Below are positions 6,407 to 22,708 of a stretch of DNA of 64,000 bases, one piece after another. Made by a program: the position numbers and the translations under genes. The stretch is taken from positions 22,388-86,387 of the forward strand of contig JAKSRS010000002.1 of assembly GCA_024403515.1 (NCBI GenBank), written 5' to 3'. The DNA comes from Lachnospiraceae bacterium. Lineage in GTDB: Bacteria; Bacillota; Clostridia; Lachnospirales; Lachnospiraceae. The notes beneath the pieces were generated by a model. The model did no database searches. It had not been told where the DNA came from and was given only the letters and a program-made list of their open reading frames with translations. Each line of letters begins with the position of its first letter. Positions within the stretch are counted from its first letter, which is position 1.

Positions 6407-6817
6407 ATGGAGAGTAAATATAACATAATAAAGGAAGGACGAGGCATATTTGTTGATATCAAAAATAAGTATTGCCTGAATGAAAACGATTATATCATTC
6501 TATTTCCGGATGACATGGATGAACTGAGTAATATGGTTATTGACAATATTGAAGTGTTAAAGAGAAAAAAATATGTAAAGAGGTTCTTTTTTGTATGTTG
6601 CGATCAGACTAATCTTCATGTTGAGAAAAGAAACGACACAATTTGGATATGTTGCTCTCAAAAAGAACTGGATGCGTTGATGGCATATTATACGCTTGTC
6701 GATTTTTTTTCAAATATTATAGTCGCTTCTTATGACATGCCTTTTGGATCAAAAGGTATCATAGGGAAGAATGGGATTTCATTGAGAGATTACGTTGTAG
6801 ACGTTTTGTTTGTGTAG
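6407..6817 (+). CDS. Hypothetical protein (136 aa), small partner of module copy 1
   Basis: C-terminal half resembles the ORFs at 8119 and 18404; 7 nt upstream of the large paralog. Confidence 0.7.
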   Translation: MESKYNIIKEGRGIFVDIKNKYCLNENDYIILFPDDMDELSNMVIDNIEVLKRKKYVKRFFFVCCDQTNLHVEKRNDTIWICCSQKELDALMAYYTLVDFFSNIIVASYDMPFGSKGIIGKNGISLRDYVVDVLFV

Positions 6818-6824
6818 GTAGGAT

Positions 6825-8117
6825 ATGTTAGTAAATGAAAAGGACAAAGAAACTATAAATTCATTAATCCATAATAGAAGAAAGTTTTTTTTAGATAAAA
6901 AAACTATTATTTTTGGATGTACACCATATGCGAGAGATATTTATCAGGCACTAGATGAGCATGACATAGGTCTTTCGTTGATAATAGATAACAATCCTAA
7001 AAAAGCGGGAAGTGGAAAACTCTGCATGGGGATTCCTACAAAAAATCCGAATGATTTAAACGATGATGAAATAAGGAACGGGATATATATTATTTGTTCA
7101 AAGTATCACTTAGAAATGACATCTCAACTAATAGAGTTGGGAGTCAATGAGAACAATATTTTATGTATTCATGTGGGTGAAAGTAAAAAACTGTTTGAAG
7201 ATGATATAGAAAAAATGGAGTCGGCATGGGAGGAAGTTTGCTTAGGTAGGAATCTTGTTGATAAATGGAAAAGAGAATATGGTAGAGATTTTTTTTTCTT
7301 TTTGTTGCCTTATCCTGGAACCGGAGATGCATATATGGCATGCAGATATTTGCCATACTTTCTAGAACAGAACAAAATTGAAAACATCATGCTAGTAGCG
7401 ACTAGTAACAATAGTTTGAAGGTTGTCAAACTATTTGGATATGATACCTTGCTTGTTTCACATGAAGAAATGTCGATAGTATTACGTTCGTGGGAAGTTT
7501 TTGAAGACTTGAGGGCGTTCGTTAAACCACTTCTCCACTGGGGATGGAGAACGAAACGCTTTATAAGTTCAGATAATCATCCACAAATTACATTTAACGA
7601 AATGTTTTTGTATGATACCTATGCTTTTGACAGGCCACATGAAGGGTATCTGCCCAAACAGGCTAAGACAGGTAGTTGGGTTGGTTGTTTTGCCAGTCAT
7701 GGCTTGAAGCAGGGAAAGACAGTTATTTTCGCACCATATGCGGGGTCTTTTACTTACAATATCTCTGCACAAGATATGGAAAATGTGGTTATTTTCTTAA
7801 AAAACAAGGGATACGATGTATGTACTAACTGTTTTGGAAAAGAAAAGCCTATTAGAGGAACTGTGCCTATTTGTTTTCCGTATGAGGAGGCAATAGGATA
7901 TGTGGAATATGCAGGTGTGTTCGTGGGTGTACGCAGTGGATTGTGTGACATAATAAGCTCCGCAAGGGCAAAAAAGATAATTATTTATGAGAGCGGATTT
8001 AATGCGACGAGCATCGATTACTTTGGGTTAGTAAATATGGGATTATGCGAGGATGCAATCGAGATAGTGTATGACAATTTCGACAAATTTGTAAGTGATA
8101 TTGAAAATGAGGTGTGA
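6825..8117 (+). CDS. GT-B fold (GT9-like) putative glycosyltransferase with N-terminal Rossmann-like domain, copy 1
   Basis: IIFG..IIDNNPKK N-domain; PYPGTGDAY, VIFAPYAGS, GYDVCTN, FVGVRSGLCDII. Confidence 0.65.
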   Translation: MLVNEKDKETINSLIHNRRKFFLDKKTIIFGCTPYARDIYQALDEHDIGLSLIIDNNPKKAGSGKLCMGIPTKNPNDLNDDEIRNGIYIICSKYHLEMTSQLIELGVNENNILCIHVGESKKLFEDDIEKMESAWEEVCLGRNLVDKWKREYGRDFFFFLLPYPGTGDAYMACRYLPYFLEQNKIENIMLVATSNNSLKVVKLFGYDTLLVSHEEMSIVLRSWEVFEDLRAFVKPLLHWGWRTKRFISSDNHPQITFNEMFLYDTYAFDRPHEGYLPKQAKTGSWVGCFASHGLKQGKTVIFAPYAGSFTYNISAQDMENVVIFLKNKGYDVCTNCFGKEKPIRGTVPICFPYEEAIGYVEYAGVFVGVRSGLCDIISSARAKKIIIYESGFNATSIDYFGLVNMGLCEDAIEIVYDNFDKFVSDIENEV

Positions 8118-8118
8118 G

Positions 8119-8529
8119 ATGACTTTTGATATCGAGCAAGCTAATAGAGGTCTTATGACTCTGAGTTTCATATTTGCAAAATGCAATTATGGAGCAACTG
8201 ACATGATATGGATATACAAAAAAGGTGAAAGTGACGTTTTGGAAAAATGCATTGCTTTCGCTGATGAAAAAATGAAGAAGGAAAGAGCAGAAAGAATAAT
8301 ATTGCTTACAGATGACGATGAAGTAGATGTCTTTCAAGAATTCATATGCAAGGTTATGTGCAGCGAGCAAGATATCGAAGATTTGATAGCCTGGTATATG
8401 GTTGGACATCCATATAACAACATAATGATTATTTCGTTAATCTACCCTGAGGGAAGAAATGGAAGAAAATGGATTGGCAAAGGGTATTCGTTCGAATCAA
8501 TATGTAAACATGGGCTATTGAGGATATAG
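8119..8529 (+). CDS. Hypothetical protein (136 aa), small partner of module copy 2
   Basis: ATG at 8119 after a GAGGTG RBS; CSEQDIEDLIAWY...NNIMIIS...PEG...IGKG aligns with copy 1 CSQKELDALMAYY...SNIIVAS...PFG...IGKNG. Confidence 0.7.
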   Translation: MTFDIEQANRGLMTLSFIFAKCNYGATDMIWIYKKGESDVLEKCIAFADEKMKKERAERIILLTDDDEVDVFQEFICKVMCSEQDIEDLIAWYMVGHPYNNIMIISLIYPEGRNGRKWIGKGYSFESICKHGLLRI

Positions 8530-8531
8530 AA

Positions 8532-9800
8532 ATGAATGTAGACGACGTTTTACGAGCTGTACTAAAAAAAATTAAAAAAAGCGAGTTACTTGAGGGAAAA
8601 AGTATTGTTATATTTGGCGTAAATAATTACTTGCCGATAATACTTAATGATCTTTATAAATACAGTATTATTGGAATATTTGATAACTCAGTTAGCAAGC
8701 AAGGCAAATATTGGGATTATAAAGTAATAGCGCCTACTGCAGAAAATATAGATGTTGATAATACAGTTGTTTTGATTGCAAGCAAATATTATGAACAGAT
8801 GAAAGAACAGCTTTTGTCCCTTGGGTACAAAATGAAAAACATCATCCAATTGCTGAATTTTATATATGTTAACTGGTTGGTATACGACTTCAATACGTCA
8901 ACAACTAGATATTATTTAGGGAAAAGTATTTATGACAAATACAAAGACGAGAACAAAATCCTATTGTTTCCAAGTAAGTCTTTGGGTGATGCGTATTTGC
9001 CACTAAGATACATGAATATTGATAACTATGTAGATTACAAAGTTTTAGTGTGTTCAGGTGTCATTAAAAGAATGCTATCCGCTGTTGGATTTTACAATGT
9101 AGATGTTTTGGCGGAGGATGAAATACTATGTCTGCAAAGATATTATGCTTTGCATAGAGCGGAAATTGAGAATATATGCTATGTTCACCCTGTTTTGAGA
9201 GATGGAAGACTAATTGATATTGACTTAGAAGTCATGGTTTCTAAAGAACATGCATTCTGGGAGTATTATGGAGATGTTGTCTTAAACAATCATATATTTC
9301 TTCCTTCGAAAGAAGAAATCAGTTTTAATGCAGATAAGAAGCGTGTAGAGAAACTATTTTCAGATCTTTCGTTGATACCAAATAAGACTGTAGTATTAGC
9401 TCCCTATGCAAAATCTTTAAGAGAATTTCCTATTTGTTTTTGGGTTAAACTCAGTGAGGAGCTAAAAAAGAGAGGTTATTCTGTATGCACAAATATTTCG
9501 GGGGATGAGGCGCCAATAGAGGGAACGATACCTTTGAACTGCAAAATCGAGGATTTTAAAGAAATAATGAAAATGGCTGGAAATGCGGTTTTCATTAGAT
9601 GCGGCTTGTGTGACATTATATCGGATATAAATGTAAAGAAAGTAGCAATTTATAGAGAACGGCCTTTTCCATATGGCCTTTGCAGCTTCTTCGAAATAAA
9701 CGATATGCGGAAAGGCCATGTTGATGATGATGTGGTTCAACTATTGTTTGACGAAGAATGTTATGAGAACACTATAAATGAAATATTGACAAATTTTTGA
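8532..9800 (+). CDS. GT-B fold (GT9-like) putative glycosyltransferase, copy 2
   Basis: IVIFG..IFDNS; PSKSLGDAY, VVLAPYAKS, GYSVCTN, IRCGLCDII. Confidence 0.65.
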   Translation: MNVDDVLRAVLKKIKKSELLEGKSIVIFGVNNYLPIILNDLYKYSIIGIFDNSVSKQGKYWDYKVIAPTAENIDVDNTVVLIASKYYEQMKEQLLSLGYKMKNIIQLLNFIYVNWLVYDFNTSTTRYYLGKSIYDKYKDENKILLFPSKSLGDAYLPLRYMNIDNYVDYKVLVCSGVIKRMLSAVGFYNVDVLAEDEILCLQRYYALHRAEIENICYVHPVLRDGRLIDIDLEVMVSKEHAFWEYYGDVVLNNHIFLPSKEEISFNADKKRVEKLFSDLSLIPNKTVVLAPYAKSLREFPICFWVKLSEELKKRGYSVCTNISGDEAPIEGTIPLNCKIEDFKEIMKMAGNAVFIRCGLCDIISDINVKKVAIYRERPFPYGLCSFFEINDMRKGHVDDDVVQLLFDEECYENTINEILTNF

Positions 9801-9820
9801 TTTTTGGAGGAATAAAGAAA

Positions 9821-11416
9821 ATGATTAGTGTGATTATTCCGGTTTACAACGGTGAATTAACCTTGAAAAGAGCAATCGACTCAATTCTTAGGCAAACATA
9901 TGAAGATTTTGAATTGATTATAGTTAATGATTGTTCGACTGATAATACTGAAAGTGTATGCCAGGAGGCCGCAGAAAACGACAGCCGCATTATCGTAATA
10001 AACAATACTTCAAATGTGGGTCAAGGAGAATCGCGAAATATCGGACTAAGAAAAGCAAAAGGAGAATATATCTATTTTTGTGACTCAGATGATTACGCTG
10101 AAGATAAGATATTAGAGGTGTTGTTGGATAAAATGATGAGTGCAGATGTCGATATAACATGCTGTGACTACTGGCAATATAACTGGAGAGCAGACATTAG
10201 ACAGTATGAAAAAATACTAATCTGTAGCGAGTGTATTGATGATGACGAAATACTGACAATTGATAAACGACCGGATATGCCAGACTTTTTTCCTTGCATT
10301 ATGTGGAATAAACTTTATAAGAAGGAAGTGTTCCAAGAGATAGAATTTCCTAGAGAAAAATTATTCTTTGAGGATTTTTATGTGAATTGTATGGCTATGC
10401 TAAAAAAGTATAGATTCTTATATTCGCATCATGTTTTATACCACTATTTTGCTTCTAATGAAAATAGCAGTAATAGCAATGCTAATGTTAAAAAGATGAC
10501 TGATGACTTGAAAATAATATTTAAGCAATTAGATGAACATTTCCGAACATCAGAAAACTACGAAAGTATAGCATGCGCATTTATGAATCATGCTAGAAGG
10601 TCTTTGAAATACCATCTGTCGAAGACAGATAATACTGATAGATTGTTGAATGAGCAAGCAATTAATCGAAGTATAGAAGAGTATTTTGGACAAACATACA
10701 CCATATACAACACTGATACAAATATCTATGCATTTGGAAGTTTTAATGTTCGTCGAGTTTTACAGTTATTGCCATATAAAGCTCAGCACATTTCCTATTC
10801 AAAAATCGATAGTATGATAAAAGATACTAGCATGCTTGAGGAAGTAAAAGTAATAGGACGAAATCCTTTCCGTACGAGACTTTTAGATATAGATATCAAT
10901 CATAATATTGTGGATATATGGGGCGCAGAGAAAAAAGATGAATATTTGATTTTGGATCTTTTAGACGAGAGAATGAAAACAATTGTTTTCAATAATCGTG
11001 TTATAACGGAGAATGAGTTTTTTGACGAATATTCTTATAGAAATTGTGTCCATTATGAGGAAATAGAGAGTGGACCCGAAGAATGGAAAGAATCTGTTCA
11101 TAAATTTGCAGAATGTCTACGAACTATGTTCGACGAAAAAAAGATTATTTTGATTAAAAATAGGATGTCAAGGGGATATGGTTTCTTTAAGCAGGAATGC
11201 ACATTTAACGAAATTGATATCATCGATAGTACAAATGAGATGATAGCGGAAAAAGAACAGTTTTTGCTAGAAGAGTTGAAGGATATTCAGGTAATAGAAA
11301 TCCCGGAGAAATTGAACTATACGTACTGCAGACACAGTTTTGGAACGAGACCGTTTTACCATAATTATCGATGGTACTATTATGTTGCAGAGGAAATAAG
11401 GAAGAGGATTAATTAA
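9821..11416 (+). CDS. GT2 glycosyltransferase fused to a C-terminal DUF6270-like domain
   Basis: ISVIIPVYN, VNDCSTD, RNIGL, FCDSDD (DxD), WNKLYK; C-terminal AFGSFNVR...YLILDLLDER; GGAGG RBS before ATG 9821. Confidence 0.85.
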   Translation: MISVIIPVYNGELTLKRAIDSILRQTYEDFELIIVNDCSTDNTESVCQEAAENDSRIIVINNTSNVGQGESRNIGLRKAKGEYIYFCDSDDYAEDKILEVLLDKMMSADVDITCCDYWQYNWRADIRQYEKILICSECIDDDEILTIDKRPDMPDFFPCIMWNKLYKKEVFQEIEFPREKLFFEDFYVNCMAMLKKYRFLYSHHVLYHYFASNENSSNSNANVKKMTDDLKIIFKQLDEHFRTSENYESIACAFMNHARRSLKYHLSKTDNTDRLLNEQAINRSIEEYFGQTYTIYNTDTNIYAFGSFNVRRVLQLLPYKAQHISYSKIDSMIKDTSMLEEVKVIGRNPFRTRLLDIDINHNIVDIWGAEKKDEYLILDLLDERMKTIVFNNRVITENEFFDEYSYRNCVHYEEIESGPEEWKESVHKFAECLRTMFDEKKIILIKNRMSRGYGFFKQECTFNEIDIIDSTNEMIAEKEQFLLEELKDIQVIEIPEKLNYTYCRHSFGTRPFYHNYRWYYYVAEEIRKRIN

Positions 11417-11417
11417 T

Positions 11418-13124
11418 ATGAACGTTTTGGTGTTAACTCATTTAGATGCAACTAATTATTCAATAGCTCAGATTGTTCGTGAGATGATTGCACGTGGGCA
11501 TCGGGTAGAAGCATACGGGAGATTTACTGATGAACATAATATAAAGATGTTTGAAGATCTCATTGAAGTTCATCAGTTATCTGAATTGACAGATGATCAT
11601 ATAAATGAATTTGATTTCATTTTTTCTGCTATAGATGTTATTGACAGAGTACGCAACATAAAGAAGTATATTTTTTGCTATAATTTTCTGTTTTGTGGCA
11701 ATTTAATTGCCGATTGCGGTGATTTTATGTTTACGCAATGCGACAACAGAATGCTGGAGTACTCAGAAGAATGCGCTACTATGGCGATAGGAAATCCGAA
11801 GTTTACAGAGATGGTGACAGACAAAAAGTCGAGCCATAAGCAATTTTTGTTCATCGATAGTGGTCATTACCCATTCGGAATCGAAGGAAGGGTAATCATT
11901 GCAAATATTCTGTTGAATATTGCGAGAACATATACAGATTATAGATTGGTTATAAAGCCTCGTTTTCTCGTAGGAGATAAAAATGTAACTCATAGAAACG
12001 ATGACCACATATATAATGTGATTGAGCGTGAGGCGAATGGAAATATACCAGAAAATCTTATAATGCTCCAAGAACATTTGGATATGAACCAATTAATTGA
12101 TGCCAGCGATTTAGTACTTTGTTTATATACTACAGCTTATATTGATGTCATTTTGCGAAACAAAAAGCTGATAATAATCGACGGGCTACCCAGCGAAGAA
12201 ACTTTCGATCAAAGATATGAAACTATATGGAAAAAGCAGAGAAGTGTGTTGGCTGATAGCGGGTGTATGTGTCACTATTCACAGGTGATGAATCATATGC
12301 CTAATGGCTTTTGTGCTACCGATGAAAGTATTAATCGTGTGGTGAAATATAAAGGGGATGCCGCAAGACGAGGGGTAAGCGCAATGGAATATGTGTGGGA
12401 CGAGTATTTGCGGAAAGGTCTATTCCCTTCAATTAAGAACCATATTTTCGAGAATGTAAATGTTAAACTTGAAGTCGATCCCGAACTGAATTGGGAACGA
12501 ATAATAACAAAAAGATATAAGAACAAACTCAGGTACAGAAGCAGATATATAGATTATGTGTCTGCAGATGTAGCCAAAAAGCCATTCATGAAAATGATAG
12601 ATGAATTGGAAGACAGGGGGTTGATTTCTCCGTATACAATAAACGAGACTATCCGATTAGTTGATTATTACAAAAATGAACTTTGGATAAAGAACAAAGA
12701 AGCGCTATGGGATGACGCTATTAATCAGTCTTCTGTAGTACAGGCATTATTCGAAAACCATAAATATGATGAACTGAAGCAAATAGAGGAAAAAGACATA
12801 GAATGCCAAAGTCAGTTTTACTACTTTATGGGAAGAGTCATGTGTGATGAAAAGAAATATGATAAAGCTATTTCCTTTTTTAAAGACTTTTTGAAAGCGT
12901 CTCGGGAGAAACCCTATGCTCAATTTTGGGTAGATCAAACAAGCAAGCAGGTCTCTGGTGAATATTTTATGGGATATGCTTATTATATGCTGAAAGAGTA
13001 CGAAGAGGCATATAGAAGGTTTGAAATATGTGAAGAACTTACTGATAATTGTCACAATATGGCTGCAAAACATATGAAAGAAATTGAACAAATATGGAGT
13101 AGCACGGGCCATACAGCTGGTTAG
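11418..13124 (+). CDS. Putative GT-B glycosyl/phosphotransferase with C-terminal TPR-like helices
   Basis: MNVLVL...RGHRVE N-lobe; LVIKPR and LIDASDLVLCLYTTAYIDVILRNKKLI C-lobe; YYFMGRV...YDKAISFF and YFMGYAYYMLKEYEEAY TPR-like repeats. Confidence 0.55.
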   Translation: MNVLVLTHLDATNYSIAQIVREMIARGHRVEAYGRFTDEHNIKMFEDLIEVHQLSELTDDHINEFDFIFSAIDVIDRVRNIKKYIFCYNFLFCGNLIADCGDFMFTQCDNRMLEYSEECATMAIGNPKFTEMVTDKKSSHKQFLFIDSGHYPFGIEGRVIIANILLNIARTYTDYRLVIKPRFLVGDKNVTHRNDDHIYNVIEREANGNIPENLIMLQEHLDMNQLIDASDLVLCLYTTAYIDVILRNKKLIIIDGLPSEETFDQRYETIWKKQRSVLADSGCMCHYSQVMNHMPNGFCATDESINRVVKYKGDAARRGVSAMEYVWDEYLRKGLFPSIKNHIFENVNVKLEVDPELNWERIITKRYKNKLRYRSRYIDYVSADVAKKPFMKMIDELEDRGLISPYTINETIRLVDYYKNELWIKNKEALWDDAINQSSVVQALFENHKYDELKQIEEKDIECQSQFYYFMGRVMCDEKKYDKAISFFKDFLKASREKPYAQFWVDQTSKQVSGEYFMGYAYYMLKEYEEAYRRFEICEELTDNCHNMAAKHMKEIEQIWSSTGHTAG

Positions 13125-13129
13125 AAAAT

Positions 13130-14245
13130 ATGATGAAGAAGTTACCGTTTTCGTTCTTTGATATTTTGGTTGATGGTGTAGACGTGTGGTTTGTTCACAA
13201 CACGTTGCCTGTACTTATTCATGGCAATATTACCTCGGATGTGTATCATATAGAAACTGTTCTTCCATTGGCTTGGGGGAATGGCTTTGCTGCATATGGT
13301 TGTGTAAAAAGATATTTAAATACTATTATTATCGCGCCTAAATCCACACCATGGTTATTGTTGTATGATATTGAAACTAAAAATATAGAAAAAATAGAAG
13401 TAGACTACAAATGTATGGTGGGGTTAGGAACCTATAACTTGTTTGATAAGATGTATATTGTAGATAAACATGCTTATCTGATACCGGGAAGGTATCCATC
13501 AATTGTAAAATTGGACTTAGAAACAAGACAACTTGAATACATTGAAGTTTGTAGTTCAAGTTGGCTTGAATCATTGAATCGAAATAAATTCCTTTTTTAC
13601 AATTCAATCCTATTAGATCGGCATATATATGCTCCGTGTTATCAAACGGGAGATATGATGAAGTTCTCCATTGATAGTGAAGACTATGAGTTGATGCCAT
13701 ATATAAATGGCGCATCATTAATTGCTGTAGCAGAATCAAAACGAGGACTAATTTGTGCGTGCAAAAATAAAACATTAATGGTTGGGAAAGATACTATTAA
13801 ACTTCCAAGTGATTTTGATTCGAATATTAATTTTTTGGTGGTTTATGGTGACAATGTTTATGTTATACCAATTAATGGGAAAGCTATTTTTTATTACAAT
13901 ATGGTTCAGTGCAAGTGGACTGAACTAGTAAAACTTCATAAAGAATATAACGCTCTATCAAGGAAAAACAGAGAATATGGAGCTGATTTTTGGAGTGTTC
14001 ATTGTGCGAATAATAGTATTTTTTTGTCATCAAATCATGAAGGAACATTAATGGTTATTGATATGATTTCTAATGAAGTAATATCAAAAACTTTGGAATT
14101 ACCCCTTGATGATTTAAACATGTTGTTTCAGTCAGAACCTGCAGATATAGTAAATGAGACTCGACAGAACAGTTTACAGAATTATATAAAAAAAATTGCT
14201 TATTTTGCAGAACTAAGAAGATATGTGTTTGAGGGAGAAGACTAA
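13130..14245 (+). CDS. Hypothetical protein, probable beta-propeller
   Basis: Repeated beta-rich blades (IIIAPK..LLLYDIET; YLIPG..IVKLDLET; VYVIP..IFYYN). Confidence 0.55.
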   Translation: MMKKLPFSFFDILVDGVDVWFVHNTLPVLIHGNITSDVYHIETVLPLAWGNGFAAYGCVKRYLNTIIIAPKSTPWLLLYDIETKNIEKIEVDYKCMVGLGTYNLFDKMYIVDKHAYLIPGRYPSIVKLDLETRQLEYIEVCSSSWLESLNRNKFLFYNSILLDRHIYAPCYQTGDMMKFSIDSEDYELMPYINGASLIAVAESKRGLICACKNKTLMVGKDTIKLPSDFDSNINFLVVYGDNVYVIPINGKAIFYYNMVQCKWTELVKLHKEYNALSRKNREYGADFWSVHCANNSIFLSSNHEGTLMVIDMISNEVISKTLELPLDDLNMLFQSEPADIVNETRQNSLQNYIKKIAYFAELRRYVFEGED

Positions 14246-15267
14246 TGAAATATGGATTATACTACTTTAAAGAAACACATAATATAGGGGATGACATATG
14301 GGCGTTTGCGCAGAGTTTGTTTTATCCGCACATTGATTACTTGATTGATAATCAGTCGGTTTACAAATTTCAGACAGATCAAGACGAGATAGTAGCCACA
14401 ATTATAAGCGCATTTGTAGAATCATGGAACAATGAAATACACTTCCTACTTCCAGAATCGATATTACCGTTTTTTATTGGGTCATATTTCAAGCCAACAA
14501 TGTGGGACTATCTGAAAAATGAAGCAATGGTAAGATATTTGAGACAATTTCAGCCCATTGGTGTAAGAAGTACAAGTAATGTAGAGCGATTAAGTGCAAT
14601 GGGGGTGAATTCTTACTTTTCGGGATGCATTTCGTTAACATTACCAAGTTTTAAAAATGATTGTACAAAGAATAAGTATATATGTTGTGTTGACGTTAAT
14701 GATGAAGTGGTCCAGTACGTTAAAGATAAAACCAGAGGGGAAAACATAGAAATAAAAAGGTTTTCGCACGATGTTTTACGGTGGAACGAGACAGAAAAAG
14801 AAAAATATTTTTCGATGAACCAGATAGAGAGATTTGAACTGGTGAAAGAATATATTGATTTATATGCTAACGCCCATTGCGTAGTTACGTCAAGATTACA
14901 TTGCGCATTACCTTGCCTTTCGCAAAAAACACCCGTCCTACTAGTGTTGCCCAGAGATGGGAGGGGCGTATCTGACATGGAAGATCGAATGAGCAGTTAC
15001 TATTCGATGCTTCACGTATGTTATGACGATAACTTCGCTAATCATACAGTAGAATATGACTTTAAACAGCCTCCGTTAAACAGTGATGATTATGTAAAAT
15101 ATAGAGACTTGCTAAATAACAATATACAGCAGTTTATTAATCAATGTGAGAATGGAGAAATAAATAAAACATACGATAGTCGAATTCAGGATACAAGAAA
15201 GAATGAATATATAGATTTTCTATTGCAGATGATAGATGATTTGAAGAAAGAAAAAATAACAAAATAA
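14245..15267 (+). CDS. Polysaccharide pyruvyl transferase family protein
   Basis: HNIGDDI, IGVRS, SGCISLTL, VVTSRLHCALPC. Confidence 0.85.
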   Translation: MKYGLYYFKETHNIGDDIWAFAQSLFYPHIDYLIDNQSVYKFQTDQDEIVATIISAFVESWNNEIHFLLPESILPFFIGSYFKPTMWDYLKNEAMVRYLRQFQPIGVRSTSNVERLSAMGVNSYFSGCISLTLPSFKNDCTKNKYICCVDVNDEVVQYVKDKTRGENIEIKRFSHDVLRWNETEKEKYFSMNQIERFELVKEYIDLYANAHCVVTSRLHCALPCLSQKTPVLLVLPRDGRGVSDMEDRMSSYYSMLHVCYDDNFANHTVEYDFKQPPLNSDDYVKYRDLLNNNIQQFINQCENGEINKTYDSRIQDTRKNEYIDFLLQMIDDLKKEKITK

Positions 15268-15303
15268 AAAGATATTAGACAAAAATGAAAGGATGAAGGA
15301 ACT

Positions 15304-16083
15304 ATGAAAGTATTAGGAGTGATAGCTTCGAGATATGGATCATCAAGATTGCCGGGAAAGGCGTTAAAGGATATATGTGGAAGGCCTATGATTTGGTGGG
15401 TGTATCATAGCATAGAGGGTGCTGAGGGACTGGATAAATTGATTGTAGCAACTGATGACCAAAGAATTGTTGATGCTTGTAACGAGTATGGAATTGAAAC
15501 AGTCATGACTCGGTCTGATCATAGAGAGGCCGCTAATCGTTTGCAAGAAGTTTCGCAAACTATTGAGGCGGATTATTATATCCAAATTAATGGGGATGAA
15601 CCTCTTTTATCGCAAGACTATATAAAAGCTATTATTCCAAGAACAATTGACCCAAGCATAGAATGTGGTGCAAATCTGATTACTAAAATGACTAATCCGG
15701 TTGAAGTAATGGATCCATCCAATATAAAAGTAGTTTTTGACGATAATTACAACACTTGTTATATGTCGAGAACGCCTATTCCTTATCCATATAGAAGTAT
15801 AGAATTCGATTACTATAAACACATAGGTATTATAGGGTATACCAAGAAAATGCTTGATTTCTATGCAACACATGCACCAGGTAAGTTTGAAAGAATTGAG
15901 GGAATAGCTACTTTACGATTTACAGACTACAGAAAAGAACTGAAATGTATCGAAGTTAAGGATATAGACTCTTTGTCTGTTGATACCCAGATGGATTTAG
16001 ACCGCATACGTGAAGTTATACGTGTGAAATTAGACGCAGGGGAATTGCAAAAGCATTTAGAGTTAATGAATAAAGGAAAGTAG
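15304..16083 (+). CDS. KdsB-like CMP-ulosonate synthetase (cytidylyltransferase)
   Basis: SRYGSSRLPGKAL, VATDD, NGDEP, VKVVFD, KHIGI, SVDTQMD. Confidence 0.88.
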   Translation: MKVLGVIASRYGSSRLPGKALKDICGRPMIWWVYHSIEGAEGLDKLIVATDDQRIVDACNEYGIETVMTRSDHREAANRLQEVSQTIEADYYIQINGDEPLLSQDYIKAIIPRTIDPSIECGANLITKMTNPVEVMDPSNIKVVFDDNYNTCYMSRTPIPYPYRSIEFDYYKHIGIIGYTKKMLDFYATHAPGKFERIEGIATLRFTDYRKELKCIEVKDIDSLSVDTQMDLDRIREVIRVKLDAGELQKHLELMNKGK

Positions 16084-16086
16084 TAT

Positions 16087-17712
16087 ATGATTAGTTTGCT
16101 GGATTGTACTTTGAGAGAGGCTCCAATTGAAAATATGTGTATGGGTGAACATACAAGTGGCAGATTATTATCAGGGCTGTCTAAGGCGGATGTTGATATT
16201 ATTGAATGCGGATACTTGAAAAACGCGTCGCACATAAGTGGAAGCACAATCTTTAACACTGTGGAAGAAATCAGTTCGTTTATAGGTTCCAAAAAGAGTA
16301 ATGTATCGTATGTTGCACTAGTGGATTATGGGCGTTACGACTTGAAGTATCTTTCAGATAATCCAGGCAATAGTATAGATGGGATTAGAATCTGTTTCAA
16401 AAAAGGCGAACAAAAAGATGTTATTTCATACGCAGAAGAAATAATCAAGCGAGGTTATAAAGTATTCATTCAGCATGTAGACACTGCTGATTATTCAGAC
16501 CAGGAAATATTGGAATTTATCGGTTGGATAAATACTATAAAGCCATATGCGTATTCGATTGTTGATACTTTTGGTGCAATGTATACTGATGATGTGAGGA
16601 GAATTGCACATTTAGTGGATTATAATCTTGATAGGAGCATTAAATTAGGATTTCATGGACACAATAACCTTTTGATGGCCAATGCTAATGCTCAAGCCTT
16701 GGTTAGTGAATTGTTTCATAAAAGAGATGTTATTATAGATGCCTCTCTTCTTGGATGCGGTAGGGGCGCGGGAAATGCGAATACCGAACTAATAGCATCT
16801 TTTTTGAATTCACGATATCAAACAAACTACGATTTGAATGTACTTTTGGATATTATTGATGATGATATGCCTTCGTTATCAAAACTTTGTTCGTGGGGAT
16901 ATAGCATGCCTTATGTTATTTCCGGACTGCATTCTACACATGTGTTTAACGTGAATTACTTGTTAAAAAAGCATAATATTAAATTGAACGATTTACGTAG
17001 TATTATTGAAAGTCTGGATGGCATTCAAAGGAAAAAATATGATTATGAACTGTTAGATGAGTTGTACATGAACTATTTTGGAGAGCGTGTTGACGATTCA
17101 GAAGCCAGATTTTATATGCAGGGCATATCGAATAGATCAATTTTATTGCTTGCACCGGGAAAAACATTGGTAAAAGAAAGAGACAAAATAGAATCATTTA
17201 TTGAAAAAAAGAAGCCATTTGTCATAGCTATAAATGGTAAAATGGATAATTTTAATGAAGATGCTGTCTTTTTTGGGAGTTGCAAACGATATGACTACTA
17301 CACCGAGACATACAAGAATGCTACAGCAAAATGTATTGTTAGCTCGAACATAAAGAGGGAGAGTGGAGAAGAAGAACTAATTGTTGATTTTCAAACGATA
17401 GCGAAAAAGGGATGGGTTAATTATGACTCGTCAGCTGTTCTTCTAATTAGATTTTTGCTGCAGAATAAATGTAAAGATATATATATTGCGGGAATGGATG
17501 GTTTTTCGAGAAATAAAAGTGAAAACTATTTTTCGGAAACATTTGTAAATGATGTTTTACCGGATAACCTGATTTTGTTGGATAAGGAATTAAGAGAAAT
17601 GTTAACAGAATTAAGAGAAGAATCGCATATGTGTGGTGGTAAAATTAGACTAGTCACACATAGCCATTATGAAGGCGTGTTCGACATATTTGATGGAGAC
17701 GAGGATATGTGA
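16087..17712 (+). CDS. DRE-TIM metallolyase (4-hydroxy-2-oxovalerate-aldolase-like) with extra C-terminal domain
   Basis: LLDCTLRE, IIECGY, SIVDTFG, GFHGHNN, GCGRGAGNANTE; C-terminal LLLAPGKT...IYIAGMDGF. Confidence 0.85.
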   Translation: MISLLDCTLREAPIENMCMGEHTSGRLLSGLSKADVDIIECGYLKNASHISGSTIFNTVEEISSFIGSKKSNVSYVALVDYGRYDLKYLSDNPGNSIDGIRICFKKGEQKDVISYAEEIIKRGYKVFIQHVDTADYSDQEILEFIGWINTIKPYAYSIVDTFGAMYTDDVRRIAHLVDYNLDRSIKLGFHGHNNLLMANANAQALVSELFHKRDVIIDASLLGCGRGAGNANTELIASFLNSRYQTNYDLNVLLDIIDDDMPSLSKLCSWGYSMPYVISGLHSTHVFNVNYLLKKHNIKLNDLRSIIESLDGIQRKKYDYELLDELYMNYFGERVDDSEARFYMQGISNRSILLLAPGKTLVKERDKIESFIEKKKPFVIAINGKMDNFNEDAVFFGSCKRYDYYTETYKNATAKCIVSSNIKRESGEEELIVDFQTIAKKGWVNYDSSAVLLIRFLLQNKCKDIYIAGMDGFSRNKSENYFSETFVNDVLPDNLILLDKELREMLTELREESHMCGGKIRLVTHSHYEGVFDIFDGDEDM

Positions 17713-17713
17713 A

Positions 17714-18370
17714 ATGGCAAAACTTAAATATGAAGGAATTCTATTTGATTTAGACGGAACATTACTTGATACTAGAGAAGGTGTAAAAGACGCAGTTGCT
17801 TTGACACACAAAGAATTGGGTATGGAGATTCCTAATGAAGAAACTCTGCAACGCTTTGTAGGACCTCCGATGCAAGATTCATTTGTAAGAGAGTATGGTT
17901 TTTCAACCGACGAGGCACAGCATGCTGCTGATATATTTAGAAGTACTTATATGCATAAAAGCCTATTTTTGGCAGAATTATATCCTGGTGTTATCCAACT
18001 ATTGGGCATATTAAGAGCAGAAGGATACAAAATTGGTGTTGCGACATATAAGAGAGAGGATTATGCAATCCGATTGTTGGATCATTTTGGGATTTCAGAT
18101 TATTGCGATGTTATTCATGGCGGAGATAATTTTAATCAACGTAAAAAATCGGACATAGTTAAAATGTGCATCGCCGCAATGAATATAAAAGGTTCTGGTC
18201 AAGTTATTTTAGTGGGTGATAGTGAATACGATGCTATTGGGGCGGAAACGGCCGGGATTCCTTTCTTCGGATTAACGTCAGGTTATGGTTTTAAAGATGA
18301 ATCGTATTACGATAAATATAAAGCTGTGGGTTGGGGAAAATGTATAATGGAATTGATAAACTTCTTGTGA
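17714..18370 (+). CDS. HAD-superfamily phosphatase (phosphoglycolate-phosphatase-like)
   Basis: FDLDGTL, VATYK, K, LVGDSEYD motifs; start refined to MAKLKY. Confidence 0.9.
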   Translation: MAKLKYEGILFDLDGTLLDTREGVKDAVALTHKELGMEIPNEETLQRFVGPPMQDSFVREYGFSTDEAQHAADIFRSTYMHKSLFLAELYPGVIQLLGILRAEGYKIGVATYKREDYAIRLLDHFGISDYCDVIHGGDNFNQRKKSDIVKMCIAAMNIKGSGQVILVGDSEYDAIGAETAGIPFFGLTSGYGFKDESYYDKYKAVGWGKCIMELINFL

Positions 18371-18403
18371 TGAAAGTTGTTTATCGGCGAAGTAGGTGAA
18401 AAG

Positions 18404-18808
18404 ATGATGGAGAGAAAACTTGCGATTTTCGGTGGGGGGAACGAAGCCGCAAAATATTATACTGATAATATGGTAGTTAATATTAGGCGGGAAAAGTTGG
18501 ATACATTAAGAAAGTTCATTTCTGACGGGAAAAGAATACTGCTTATAGATAGCAATGTTTTTTTCCCATCATTTAAGGAAAGGCTTTCTGAACATTTGGA
18601 AAGCCAGCACGCAAAAGATGATTTTATCATTATTGAGTCTGATAGTCCAATCTATGATACTGCTGTACGTTTGTATAACTGCTATGAGTATGATAACAAC
18701 ATTCGACTACTGACTAATTCCTCCGGATATGCGTCTTTAGTGAATTACTATTTGACTGGAATTATTACTGAAAAGCAATTGATAGAAATGATTGTTCATG
18801 GTTTATAA
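18404..18808 (+). CDS. Hypothetical protein (134 aa), small partner of module copy 3
   Basis: ATG 18404 after an AGGTG RBS; C-terminal LYNCYEYDNNIRLLTNS...G..TEKQLIE resembles copies 1 and 2; 2 nt upstream of the large paralog. Confidence 0.65.
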   Translation: MMERKLAIFGGGNEAAKYYTDNMVVNIRREKLDTLRKFISDGKRILLIDSNVFFPSFKERLSEHLESQHAKDDFIIIESDSPIYDTAVRLYNCYEYDNNIRLLTNSSGYASLVNYYLTGIITEKQLIEMIVHGL

Positions 18809-18810
18809 GT

Positions 18811-20067
18811 ATGGAAAAGAAACTGTATTCTGAAATGTCTGCTAATGTCGAGAAACTTAATGATGAAATCCAGTTGAATGCAAATAATCTTTTTGTATTT
18901 GGATATTGTAAGGCATCGATGGAACTTATAGACTTGCTTGCTGAGAAAAATATAGAAATTAAAGGGATTCTTGATAATAGTGAGGATAAGCAGTTAAGAA
19001 ACTACAAAGGTGCTAAGGTCTATTACCCAGATGATATACTAAAACTTGTTCCAAAAAGTGACGAGAAAAACTCTGTAGTACTAGTTGTATCCAGATTTTA
19101 TGAGACTATGGCGAAGCAACTCCGAGGATTAGGATACAAGGGGAGAATTGAGAAAATAGTTAATTACAATACTTATTCTGATTATTCGCTCTCTGATGAG
19201 ACATTAAATCGGATGATAGGGAGAGAACAAAGTGGTGAAAGACTAATCAAGGAATTAGAAAGCAAATATCAAAACGCTTTTAAAGTGTTCTTCCCATTTA
19301 ACGCGCTAGGTGATGTTTATATAGCAATGTCGTATTGGTACGCGTTTGCTAAATTGAAAGGCATAGTTAATCCGGTGTTTTGTGTTCCTTCAAAGGCATT
19401 GAAGGAAGTGGTTCTTTTATTTGGAAACTTTCAGGTTGAGGTGTACAATCAGGAAAATTTGGATTCAATGGTTCAAGCTGCAATCTGCATGCGGGATGAT
19501 AGATTTTTTATTGCACATCATGATAGGCCTTACGTTGTTTATCTTCATAAGGCATTATATTTTAAGATGATTCCGCTGGATATGATTTATCGCTGTGGTG
19601 TTTATGGATTATCTGTGGATGCAAAACCAATGATACCACGCATAAACAATAAGGTGTACAAAGAAATAGAGAAGATTCCTAAGGGGAAGGCAGTAATCTT
19701 TTCTCCTTATGCAAAATCAATTACAACATTGTCAGAAAATGTATGGAACGATGCAGTTAACTATTACAAATCTATAGGATATAAATGTTACACAAATGTT
19801 GTTGGAGATGAACAACCCCTAAAAAATACAGAGGCTATTTCACCATCTATATCTGAGATTAGGGCTGTGGTAGAGCAGGCGGGATTGTTTGTCGGAATAC
19901 GTAGTGGTCTTTGTGATGTCATAAGAGAAGCAAAGGCGAAGAAAATAGCATTATATCCAGATTATAATTACTGTGATACAAAATGGAAAGCTATTGATAT
20001 ATATTATATTGATCAGTTTGATTACAATATTCTAGCTAATGAGAATATAAAGTGGGAGATACTTTAA
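18811..20067 (+). CDS. GT-B fold (GT9-like) putative glycosyltransferase, copy 3
   Basis: LFVFG..ILDNS; PFNALGDVY, VIFSPYAKS, GYKCYTN, FVGIRSGLCDVI. Confidence 0.65.
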   Translation: MEKKLYSEMSANVEKLNDEIQLNANNLFVFGYCKASMELIDLLAEKNIEIKGILDNSEDKQLRNYKGAKVYYPDDILKLVPKSDEKNSVVLVVSRFYETMAKQLRGLGYKGRIEKIVNYNTYSDYSLSDETLNRMIGREQSGERLIKELESKYQNAFKVFFPFNALGDVYIAMSYWYAFAKLKGIVNPVFCVPSKALKEVVLLFGNFQVEVYNQENLDSMVQAAICMRDDRFFIAHHDRPYVVYLHKALYFKMIPLDMIYRCGVYGLSVDAKPMIPRINNKVYKEIEKIPKGKAVIFSPYAKSITTLSENVWNDAVNYYKSIGYKCYTNVVGDEQPLKNTEAISPSISEIRAVVEQAGLFVGIRSGLCDVIREAKAKKIALYPDYNYCDTKWKAIDIYYIDQFDYNILANENIKWEIL

Positions 20068-20241
20068 CATTAGCGGCATTTATGGCTTGGATATTTGATT
20101 AGAACAGGACAATATTAAAATATATCGGATAAAAAACTGAGATAACATGATTCTTCAATAGATTAAGAAGTTCGATGTGGTTTTTAAGAAGTAATTACTA
20201 ACAAGATATAATACAAACGTAAGTTAAAAGCAGGGGAAAAT

Positions 20242-20904
20242 ATGAAATTTGAACTAAACGCCTCAATGATGTGCGCAAACTATGGTCACTTGGCCAGGGA
20301 AATAGAAAATCTTGAGAAGGGTGGAATCGATTCTTTCCATATCGATATCATGGATGGTCGATATGTACCTAACTATGCTATGTCGCTAAATGACATGAAG
20401 TATATCGCTCATGCGACCAAGAAGCCCTTGGATGTGCATCTTATGATTGAGCACCCCAATACCAACATAAAACTTTTTCTTGAGAATCTTCGTAAGGGCG
20501 ATACCGTATACATTCATCCTGAAGCTGAGTATCATCCATCGACAACACTTCAGAAGATCATAGATGCGGGTATGGTTCCCGGAATTGCAATCAATCCCGG
20601 CACAAGTGTTGAAACGGTAATGGAAATGCTTCAGATTGTTGATAAGGTTCTTGTAATGTCTGTAAATCCCGGTAGCGCGGGTCAGATGTATCTTCCTTAT
20701 GTCGGAAGTAAGGTCAAGAAGCTTATCAGCTTAAAAGAGGAACTTGGATTTAAACTCTACTGGGACGGCGCATGTTCAGCCGATAAGATTTTGGAGTTTG
20801 CACCTCTTGGTGTAGATGGTTTTGTCCTTGGTACTACCATATTGTTTGGAAAGAAAGAATCTTACGCAGATATCTTAAAGAATGTTCGCGAACTGAAGAT
20901 TTAG
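20242..20904 (+). CDS. Ribulose-phosphate 3-epimerase family (Rpe/AlsE-like)
   Basis: FHIDIMDG, LDVHLM, VMSVNPG..GQ, WDGA metal/phosphate motifs. Confidence 0.9.
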   Translation: MKFELNASMMCANYGHLAREIENLEKGGIDSFHIDIMDGRYVPNYAMSLNDMKYIAHATKKPLDVHLMIEHPNTNIKLFLENLRKGDTVYIHPEAEYHPSTTLQKIIDAGMVPGIAINPGTSVETVMEMLQIVDKVLVMSVNPGSAGQMYLPYVGSKVKKLISLKEELGFKLYWDGACSADKILEFAPLGVDGFVLGTTILFGKKESYADILKNVRELKI

Positions 20905-20946
20905 TAAGGCACATAAAGGGAATTTTCTTTTGAAAGAGGAATATAA

Positions 20947-21633
20947 ATGGCAATAGGAATTTTACTTTCCGGTGGAACCGGAGAGAGAGCGGGCTTTGAC
21001 CTTCCGAAGCAGTACATGATGGCTGGCGATAAGATGGTCATTAGCTACTGCATTGAAACGCTTGAGGCAAGCGAGGATATAGAAGCTTACATTATTGTTT
21101 CGGATCCTTCCTGGCAGGACGAGCTAAAGAAAGTTATCGGTGATAGTAATAAGTTTGAAGGCTTTGCTAATCCCGGCAACAACCGTCAGTTATCGATTTA
21201 TAACGGGCTTAAAACGCTTGAGGACATTGCAGATGAAGATACAATCGTTATGATTCATGATGCTGCAAGACCTATGCTAACGGTGGCTGACATTAAAACT
21301 TATGTTGAAGCCTGCTGTGGCCATGATGGAGTACTTCCTGTGCTTCCTATGAAGGATACTCTTTATTATAGTGAAAGTGGTTTGGAGGTTTCGGGGCTTT
21401 TAGACAGAAGCAAAATCTACGCCGGTCAGGCGCCCGAATTCTTTTCTTTTGACAAGTACTTAGATGCCAATGAAAGCATTTTCATGGATCTAAATAAGAT
21501 AAATGGCTCGACCGAGCCTGCGATTATGGCGGGGATGGATATCTGCATGGTTCCCGGCAATGAAATGAATTTTAAGATTACTACAAAGGCGGATTTTGAG
21601 CGCTTTGCAGATATCGTAAGTAAAAGGGGTTAA
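20947..21633 (+). CDS. IspD/TarI-family alditol-phosphate cytidylyltransferase
   Basis: LLSGGTGER..PKQY, IHDAARP, GQAPE, KITT. Confidence 0.9.
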   Translation: MAIGILLSGGTGERAGFDLPKQYMMAGDKMVISYCIETLEASEDIEAYIIVSDPSWQDELKKVIGDSNKFEGFANPGNNRQLSIYNGLKTLEDIADEDTIVMIHDAARPMLTVADIKTYVEACCGHDGVLPVLPMKDTLYYSESGLEVSGLLDRSKIYAGQAPEFFSFDKYLDANESIFMDLNKINGSTEPAIMAGMDICMVPGNEMNFKITTKADFERFADIVSKRG

Positions 21634-21636
21634 TTT

Positions 21637-22704
21637 GTGAAAGCCTGGACTTTGAATTCTGTTAAGGATATTTCATATGGTGATGTCAGTAAGCCTGTTC
21701 CTTCTAAGGGAGAGGTTTTAGTTAAGGTTGCTGCTTGCGGGATTTGTGGTTCGGATATTCCAAGAATTTACCAAAACGGCGCCCACAAAATGCCCCTAAT
21801 TCCCGGCCATGAGTTTTCAGGAAGGGTTGAGGCTGTCTCGGATCCTTGTGATAACGATCTTTTAGGCGCAAAGGTTGGTGTTTTTCCGCTGATTCCCTGT
21901 ATGAAATGTTCATCGTGCCAAAAGAAAATGTACGAGATGTGTAAGTCCTATAGTTACCTCGGTTCAAGATGCGATGGTGGATTTGCGGACTATGTTTCGG
22001 TTCCTAAGTGGAATCTTATAAAACTTCCTGAAAATGTGTCATTTGAGGCGGCTGCTATGCTTGAACCAATGGCTGTTTCGGTTCATGCTATGAGAAAGGC
22101 TGACATTAAAGAATCCGATAGAGTCCTTGTATGGGGGGCCGGAACGATTGGGTTACTACTTACTATGTTTTTAAAGGATGCAGGGGTTGAAAGACTTATT
22201 CTTGTTGGAAATCATGATTACCAAAGGGATTATGCGACTCTTGTAGGGATTTCTCGTGAAAACTTTATTAATGTAAGTGACCGTGATCCGATAGAAATGA
22301 TTAATAAAGCAACTGATGGAGAAGGCGTGGATGTCTTCTTTGAATGTGTTGGTAAAAGCGAGATATTAAAAGATGCCATTAATGTTACTTCGATGGGCGC
22401 AAGCATTGTAACTGTTGGAAATCCCTATGGTGATGTTTCTTTAGCAAGAGATGATTACTGGAACATATTAAGGCATCAGCTTAAAATCTTTGGAACCTGG
22501 AATTCTTCCTTCTTAGGAGAAGAAGACCCGGATTCTTTGAATGATTCCTGGCACTATGTTTTAAAAAGGCTTGAAGAAGGGGCCATCCACCCTGAAAGAC
22601 TTATTAGTCACAGGCTTGATAAATCTGAGTTAGCAAAAGGTCTTGAGATAATGAGGGACAAAAGTCAGCCATACATTAAAGTAATGACGACGTGGGAGAA
22701 ATAA
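21637..22704 (+). CDS. Zn-dependent alditol-phosphate dehydrogenase (GatD/TarJ-like MDR)
   Basis: GTG start; CGICGSD, GHE, C..C..C...C structural Zn site, LEP, GAGTIG. Confidence 0.88.
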   Translation: MKAWTLNSVKDISYGDVSKPVPSKGEVLVKVAACGICGSDIPRIYQNGAHKMPLIPGHEFSGRVEAVSDPCDNDLLGAKVGVFPLIPCMKCSSCQKKMYEMCKSYSYLGSRCDGGFADYVSVPKWNLIKLPENVSFEAAAMLEPMAVSVHAMRKADIKESDRVLVWGAGTIGLLLTMFLKDAGVERLILVGNHDYQRDYATLVGISRENFINVSDRDPIEMINKATDGEGVDVFFECVGKSEILKDAINVTSMGASIVTVGNPYGDVSLARDDYWNILRHQLKIFGTWNSSFLGEEDPDSLNDSWHYVLKRLEEGAIHPERLISHRLDKSELAKGLEIMRDKSQPYIKVMTTWEK

Positions 22705-22708
22705 TAAT

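Follow-up and report, generated by a model that had tools for sequence, protein, structure and literature searches.

Gene content of the locus

We analysed a 64,000-nucleotide (nt) stretch of contig JAKSRS010000002.1 (assembly GCA_024403515.1, Lachnospiraceae bacterium), hereafter the window, in which a two-gene module is present three times: a small protein of about 135 amino acids (aa) is encoded immediately before a large, glycosyltransferase-like protein of about 420 aa. The modules belong to a string of 17 tightly spaced genes on the forward strand (6407-24961), which has a G+C content of 34% as compared to ~40% in the flanks. Our open reading frame (ORF) calls agree with the initial annotation on the six genes (S1/L1, S2/L2 and S3/L3; Table 1) and on the gaps of 7, 2 and 2 nt that separate the members of each pair. 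The frame of S2 is open from a GTG at 8095, upstream of the ATG at 8119, and that of S3 from a TTG at 18377, upstream of the ATG at 18404. Clear Shine-Dalgarno-like sequences precede S2 (GAGGTG, 5 nt upstream), L2 and S3, and that of L3 is weak, which fits translational coupling to the small gene before it.

Table 1. Coordinates of the gene pairs and associated features in the window, and of related features in other loci (L followed by three digits)
Feature	Coordinates	Strand	Basis
S1, putative small partner, 136 aa, S1/S2-type	6407..6817	+	ORF; family hidden Markov model (HMM) E 2e-44
L1, GT9-like GT-B, 430 aa, N-terminal Rossmann (C2185-like_N-type)	6825..8117	+	BLASTP, invariant motifs
S2, putative small partner, 136 aa from ATG 8119	8119..8529	+	BLASTP vs S1; family HMM E 5e-31; ribosome-binding site
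L2, GT9-like GT-B, 422 aa	8532..9800	+	Alignment; large HMM E 2e-102
Glycan genes between pairs: GT2+DUF6270, DUF6716-like/TPR, unknown 371-aa protein, pyruvyl transferase, KdsB-like cytidylyltransferase, HMGL-like aldolase, HAD phosphatase	9797..18370	+	Pfam, NCBIfam
S3, putative small partner, 134 aa, diverged S3-type	18404..18808	+	S3-type alignment; hhalign
L3, GT9-like GT-B, 418 aa	18811..20067	+	AlphaFold2 (AF2) model; Foldseek; homolog search
Downstream end of gene string: ribulose-P 3-epimerase, IspD/TarI-like, zinc alcohol dehydrogenase (TarJ-like), LicD (750 aa)	20242..24961	+	Pfam, NCBIfam
Short S3-type partners	L007 5059-5244; L009 1446-1649; L032 7772-8017; L003 7520-7756		
HAD-like gene 3' of L3 orthologs	L030 9242-9613; L031 9230-9601; L032 9245-9616; L043 1823-2194; L044 7242-7613; L045 7242-7613		
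Rossmann module elsewhere	L008 362-4393; L030 2125-3402; L031 4690-7338; L044 2222-3778; L045 4428-5561		

The large and small protein families

L1, L2 and L3 are paralogs that share 27-28% identity (BLASTP of L1 against L3, 3e-28), and every motif initially noticed in them falls on invariant columns of their alignment (P162/G167/D168/Y170, P-Y-A-x-S, G-Y...T-N, E-x-P...T and R-x-G-L-C-D). The AF2 model of L3, obtained from a 34-sequence alignment, has a mean predicted local distance difference test (pLDDT) of 88.3 and is composed of a Rossmann-like domain (residues 1-115), a long helix (129-152), an alpha/beta N-lobe (157-264) and an alpha/beta C-lobe (294-408). When this model was compared with the PDB by Foldseek, GT9 structures came out on top (3tov, TibC 4rap/4rb4 and WaaC 2h1h/2gt1), with E-values of 1e-5 to 1e-3, a probability of 1.00, template modelling (TM) scores of 0.40-0.50 and 10-14% identity. 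The confident model and these matches together confirm that the large protein is a glycosyltransferase of the GT-B fold preceded by an N-terminal Rossmann-like domain, as the initial annotation had supposed.

The large family is GT9-like in fold and lies outside GT9 by sequence profile. PF01075 (Glyco_transf_9) does not match L1-L3 even at E<=10, and its best score (17.1 bits, cut-off 22) was reached only by a distant paralog on another contig of the same genome (C77). The model of the TibC/Aah autotransporter heptosyltransferases (TIGR04414) stays below threshold on the large protein, with 14.4 bits for a cut-off of 200. No Pfam or NCBIfam model is significant on L1-L3, whose GT-B core remains uncovered and which show faint Rossmann matches of the NeuD/Rex type, and sequence searches of the PDB with the large and the small proteins found nothing. 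L3 has 892 relatives at E<=1e-3, the best 120 of which measure 410-427 aa and share 55-65% identity with it; those named among these 120 are all "hypothetical" and come from Butyrivibrio, Pseudobutyrivibrio, Oribacterium and other Lachnospiraceae. Following the first strand of the N-lobe, D168 is present in 34/34 and G167 in 33/34 aligned large proteins. We take the catalytic Asp13 of WaaC to sit in the Gly-Asp motif of its N-lobe, and G167-D168 to occupy that place in the large protein; by position and motif, this Gly-Asp would be the counterpart of the GT9 catalytic base.

Precomputed matches to PF22674 (C2185-like_N), some of them weak, are present at the N-terminus (~100 residues) of many L3 homologs and in neighbouring large genes; hmmscan of L1-L3 themselves with this model (cut-off 27 bits) gave no match even at E<=10. 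In related glycan clusters, a module of this type was also observed on LicD, TagF-like (Glyphos_transf) and pyruvyl-transferase/Fe-S proteins, as well as in standalone proteins of ~130 aa, and it looks like a shared, mobile unit of such clusters.

The small proteins evolve much less conservatively. S1 and S2 are marginally similar (BLASTP 9e-6), and S3 gives no significant pairwise BLASTP match to either. Word-based homolog searches, for which the family has diverged too far, returned almost nothing with S1 and S3. In other genomes, small ORFs sharing the C-terminal pattern are nevertheless found upstream of large-protein homologs, and members were first gathered from these positions, then by a full HMM scan. 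A profile of eight such sequences, run against 1.84 billion protein representatives, matches 702 of them at E<=1e-3 and 450 at E<=1e-10; among the 149 matches listed, 147 are standalone proteins of 113-218 aa. Searches of Pfam, NCBIfam and the PDB by sequence gave no match to the small family, in agreement with the initial remark that it corresponds to no described family, and its sole member with a database name is a "hypothetical protein". The small proteins are thus a real, unnamed family.

This family includes two subtypes. An S3-type ORF of 79-123 aa lies directly upstream of the L3 ortholog in all six loci examined for this, with conservation among orthologs limited to the C-terminal ~45 residues: these proteins are only 16-28% identical to S3, whereas the adjacent enzymes are 58-65% identical to L3. 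The alignments of S3-type and S1/S2-type proteins match each other with a probability of 97.0% in hhalign (E 1.1e-10, 111 columns), a result that needed larger alignments, as an earlier comparison with smaller small-protein profiles had given only 49%. The initial annotation was therefore right in treating the three small proteins as homologous and copy 3 as the most diverged, and S3 can be described, from these profiles, as a diverged subtype joined to S1 and S2 only at profile level. Some S3-type partners are just 62-82 aa long and keep the C-terminal motif LYY.YEF.D...NYV..GILT.EE (Table 1). As these short copies retain only that motif, the functional core of the subtype may be this segment.

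The small family is homologous to part of the large one. The 67-sequence alignment of small proteins and the 34-sequence alignment of large proteins match with 98.0% probability in hhalign (E 2.3e-13), positions 5-152 of the small protein corresponding to 136-278 of the large. An independent HMM, made from 147 database representatives of the small family, matches L1 and L3 over residues 130-274 (E ~1e-9). The AF2 model of S1 is also confident (pLDDT 88, predicted TM score 0.83), and its elements follow the order of L3 129-264: long helix, strand, two helices, strand, strand, helix, strand. Both families have a Gly in the long helix and a Pro that ends the first strand. In Foldseek, the S1 model alone has no significant match in the PDB; its best match reaches an E-value of 0.1, and the matches are a mixture of GT-B N-lobes and other Rossmann folds. 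The S3-type alignment gave no hhalign match to the large protein, so the relation of S3 to the large family runs through the S1-type.

At the position of the invariant Asp of the large proteins, the residue is Leu, Ile, Tyr, Cys, Val or Met in 64/67 small proteins and Asp in 0/67. The small proteins possess conserved positions of their own that the large protein lacks (G11, W15, Y95, F100, S108 and the invariant P112), as well as motifs missing from it (GR..W, YY.L..F and G.kGiT). On this sequence evidence, the small protein is a paralog, apparently catalytically dead, of the connecting helix and N-lobe of the large protein. The split domain once considered for it does not hold, as the modelled large protein keeps both lobes; the small protein is an extra, degenerate N-lobe and not a split-off piece of the enzyme.

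Linkage of the pairs and the proposed two-component enzyme

To map the loci, we used HMMs of the two small subtypes, of the large protein and of a HAD-like protein of 125 aa that recurs in them, and the adjacency counts below rest on our own ORF calls together with these HMMs. In 22/23 independent clusters with a large gene, at least one small gene belongs to the same string, the 23rd being cut by a contig end inside the operon. The small gene is directly upstream of, or fused to, 24/37 large genes, with gaps ranging from 4-nt overlaps to ~20 nt. The expectation that large homologs are usually accompanied by a small gene is thus borne out, and natural fusions were found as well. One of these, P0251 (621 aa), joins the small protein to the Rossmann domain and the GT-B core, and four distinct 621-aa variants occur on four contigs. 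Another, P0152 (312 aa), consists of the small protein and the Rossmann domain only, and its two parts are encoded by adjacent separate genes in genome G110.

The system has a patchy distribution. In a sample of 301 genomes from the same family (Lachnospiraceae), with about one genome per genus, the large protein was detected in 10 (E<=1e-20) and an S1-type small protein in six, all six being among the 10; the system is present in ~2-3% of the genera. In 400 genomes sampled across the phylum, the small family was detected only in the genome of the window. Pairwise distances of small and large proteins are correlated (Mantel r 0.79, 0/5000 permutations), also within the S1-type alone (r 0.41, 175/5000 permutations). 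In pairs 1 (S1/L1) and 3 (S3/L3) of the window, both members have their nearest neighbour in one and the same other pair, that of genome G248 in the case of S1 and L1. Since distances co-vary and nearest neighbours are shared, the pairs have been duplicated and inherited as units.

From these data we favour, with a probability of roughly 0.55, the reading that each pair forms a two-component glycosyltransferase, in which an N-lobe derivative serves as the non-catalytic partner. The large protein would be the catalytic subunit, a soluble GT-B enzyme whose GT9-like family is unclassified. From N- to C-terminus, it would consist of the additional Rossmann domain, the long connecting helix, an N-lobe with the invariant Gly-Asp and a C-lobe predicted to bind the nucleotide-sugar. 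In GT-B enzymes the acceptor is normally held by the N-lobe. The small protein, a standalone and catalytically dead helix plus N-lobe made from the same transcript immediately before the enzyme, would bind it as a non-catalytic partner and either set or extend acceptor recognition, or stabilise the enzyme. The physical complex of the two proteins and the role of the partner are inferred, with the fusions as indirect evidence for a complex. With pairs inherited as units, each of the three pairs of the window would contribute a different residue to a single glycan, whose assembly by the all-soluble 17-gene cluster would take place in the cytoplasm. The fast divergence of the small protein beside a conserved enzyme would fit a role in specificity or as an adaptor.

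A bolder version of this reading, which we hold only tentatively, is that the small proteins are exchangeable specificity subunits that dock via the shared long helix or the Rossmann domain and build a composite acceptor site. The acceptor could be a protein such as flagellin, a possibility raised by the lack of membrane proteins in the cluster and by the presence of a Maf-type gene in one related cluster. If this were true, changes in a cheap gene for 135 aa could reshape acceptor specificity and leave the conserved catalytic subunit as it is, and the pairs would represent a new organisational class of GT-B enzymes, represented in hundreds of clusters of Firmicutes from gut and rumen.

Several observations weigh against a two-component enzyme. 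Of the 37 large genes, 13 are without their own small gene, most of them lying after a HAD-like gene or a further large gene; where large genes stand in tandem, there is one small gene for all of them or none, so that the ratio is not one-to-one. The idea of a partner put forward initially is hence retained as far as the preserved pairing is concerned (22/23 clusters); "obligate" is too strong a word when about a third of the large genes lack their own small gene. In four loci (L004, L005, L041 and L046), the order is small, nucleotidyltransferase/kinase, SIS isomerase, HAD-like and large, the small gene heading the operon instead of lying beside the transferase. L3 orthologs are over-represented among the sampled loci. 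A Mantel correlation of this kind would arise between any two linked genes and says nothing about contact, and weak constraint would explain the fast divergence of the small protein equally well. That D168 is equivalent to the WaaC Asp is judged from the position of the motif and not from a residue-level superposition. Finally, the fusions of the small protein with the Rossmann domain only suggest that its true partner may be this domain rather than the catalytic core.

This last point leads to another explanation, in our opinion unlikely but the strongest of the competitors, in which the small protein acts as a general-purpose scaffold or adaptor of C2185-like_N-type Rossmann domains and is not dedicated to the transferase encoded beside it. 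It would dock wherever such a domain occurs (on GT9-like, LicD, TagF-like and pyruvyl-transferase proteins, or on the standalone form) and assemble several glycan-modifying enzymes into one complex. Along with the fusion P0152 and the adjacent small and Rossmann genes of G110, it would account for the unequal ratio and for the four operons headed by a small gene, and the first ~100 positions of the large HMM do match LicD, Glyphos_transf and pyruvyl-transferase proteins in related loci. However, the small protein also pairs with large proteins that apparently have no Rossmann domain and match the model from position ~131 (387 aa in L028 and 354 aa in L029), the subtypes of small and large proteins co-vary, and the LicD, GT2 and pyruvyl transferase of the window do not carry the module.

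The gene order of the same four operons (small, NTP_transferase/APH, SIS, HAD-like, large), together with the co-occurrence of the family with this nucleotide-sugar supply route in many loci, could also mean that the small protein works with the route, as a regulator or in substrate channelling, and that its linkage to the transferase is merely genetic. We consider this quite improbable, as all three small genes of the window abut transferases while the route is encoded on C77, which has no small gene, and as the small protein is homologous to the N-lobe of the transferase itself and is found fused to it. That the small ORFs are functionless, decaying leftovers of tandemly duplicated transferase genes, as their homology to an internal part of the large protein, their fast divergence and the S3-type copies of only 62-82 aa might suggest, is rejected as very improbable in view of the 702 representatives with intact ORFs of similar length and motifs of their own, the confident AF2 model, the conserved in-frame fusions and the position before the large gene kept across genera.

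Whatever the role of the small protein, two sizeable families (892 large relatives and 702 small representatives), unnamed in Pfam, NCBIfam, the PDB and the database names seen, are now tied evolutionarily and genetically. Should the small protein prove to be a partner subunit, a GT-B enzyme would be able to recruit a spare version of its acceptor lobe, and new glycan linkages could arise by a simple route in the hypervariable surface-glycan loci of Lachnospiraceae from rumen and gut. The annotation of such clusters would benefit as well, and so would heterologous expression of the transferases, which would require co-expression of the partner. The natural fusions already offer a direct route to a structural test of the partner idea.

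Glycan context and comparison with known systems

Two candidate sources of the donor emerge from the gene content. The first is a CMP-activated keto-acid, putatively made by in-cluster KdsB-like, aldolase and HAD genes. The KdsB-like cytidylyltransferase scores 211 bits in NCBIfam (cut-off 193) and is followed (15304-18370) by a 541-aa protein and a phosphoglycolate-phosphatase-like HAD protein. The 541-aa protein has an N-terminal HMGL domain resembling 4-hydroxy-2-oxovalerate aldolase, not KdsA or NeuB, and its C-terminal ~200 aa gave no match. The second candidate is the product of the isomerase-kinase-phosphatase-nucleotidyltransferase route, as judged from its genes, which accompany the family in many loci and lie on contig C77 in this genome. 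The SIS protein of this route scores as KpsF/KdsD-like and not as GmhA, and heptose is accordingly not established as the sugar; the "NDP-heptose" donor has been softened for this reason.

On C77, a second glycan cluster of the same genome (44166-56968, minus strand) encodes a 708-aa fusion of NTP-transferase, APH-type kinase and KpsF/KdsD-like SIS domains, a HAD-like protein of 126 aa, a GT2 protein and a 577-aa ABC transporter with membrane segments. It also contains two distant GT9-like paralogs (352 and 318 aa) with neither a Rossmann domain nor a small partner. A gene for a minimal HAD-like phosphatase of 123 aa follows every L3 ortholog examined and overlaps its end by 16 nt (Table 1), and the same protein is encoded directly upstream of large genes in other loci. 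It is missing after L3 of the window (20067-20242), the sole copy in the genome being that of C77 (47240-47620).

As for the acceptor, no membrane-spanning stretch was detected in the 17 cluster proteins, the highest Kyte-Doolittle mean over 19 residues being 1.52, and no initiating transferase, flippase or polymerase was found in the cluster (6407-24961). By analogy with TibC-like or flagellin systems, such an all-soluble cluster would fit cytoplasmic protein glycosylation. It equally fits a set of peripheral enzymes that work on a lipid-linked polymer, with the genes for the initiation and export of this polymer located elsewhere. The same contig carries flagellin genes, and a Maf/MptE-like gene was found in one related locus. 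A flagellin-glycosylation island was considered and not adopted, because these genes lie ~110 kb from the module and a flagellin gene is next to the module in just one related locus.

Some further features of these loci can be mentioned. In locus L032, the same genes as in 20242..24961 of the window come after the L3 ortholog. The 371-aa protein of the window (13130-14245), which has no Pfam match, has a relative in an Oribacterium cluster (L031 3532-4644, BLASTP 8e-14, 22% identity) and, by appearance only, a look-alike in L030 (995-2134); judging from the BLASTP match, it is probably another conserved unknown of these glycan loci. A different arrangement was noticed in L037 (G110:C23, minus strand) and L027, the order in G110 being small, standalone Rossmann, a large ORF, a 285-aa ORF and then large transferases. 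That large ORF ends in a C-terminal RVWG-type motif, which by motif alone is reminiscent of glycyl-radical enzymes.

Among known enzymes, the best structural matches of the large protein are members of GT9 (WaaC and the Veillonella structure 3tov) and TibC, which are GT-B enzymes made of two Rossmann domains. TibC is a soluble cytoplasmic enzyme that acts on a protein acceptor (PMC4358343), which fits a cluster without any membrane protein. By motif position, the large protein resembles GT9 in the Gly-Asp after the first N-lobe strand, and differs from GT9 and TibC in its extra N-terminal Rossmann domain and long helix, and in sharing only 10-14% identity with them. To our knowledge, no N-lobe-like partner has been described for the GT9 or TibC families. 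The Pfam family C2185-like_N (PF22674) relates only to the N-terminal Rossmann domain, and not to the GT-B core or the small protein.

In gene layout, the nearest known systems are of the Alg13/Alg14 and Cps14F/Cps14G type, in which the two lobes of one GT-B enzyme are carried by separate chains, encoded by small adjacent genes, that must associate. Unlike in Alg13/Alg14, the large protein here holds both lobes, and the N-lobe of the small protein is supernumerary. The nearest mechanistic analogy is GtfA-GtfB, the O-GlcNAc transferase of serine-rich-repeat (SRR) adhesins, in which a catalytic GT-B protein is encoded next to a non-catalytic paralog without active-site residues, GtfB, that helps acceptor binding and stability. 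The small protein described here is likewise a paralog, apparently non-catalytic, encoded beside the enzyme (98% in hhalign, Asp replaced by a hydrophobic residue). It differs from GtfB, a full-length two-lobe GT-B protein of a size similar to GtfA, in being reduced to a helix and one lobe of ~135 aa; the two systems have no sequence relationship, and neither an accessory Sec system nor an SRR adhesin lies nearby. No description of the small-large pair was found in the family and structure libraries or in the literature searched. What is new here is a GT9-like family, as yet unclassified, together with a hitherto unrecognised family of putative partners derived from its N-lobe.

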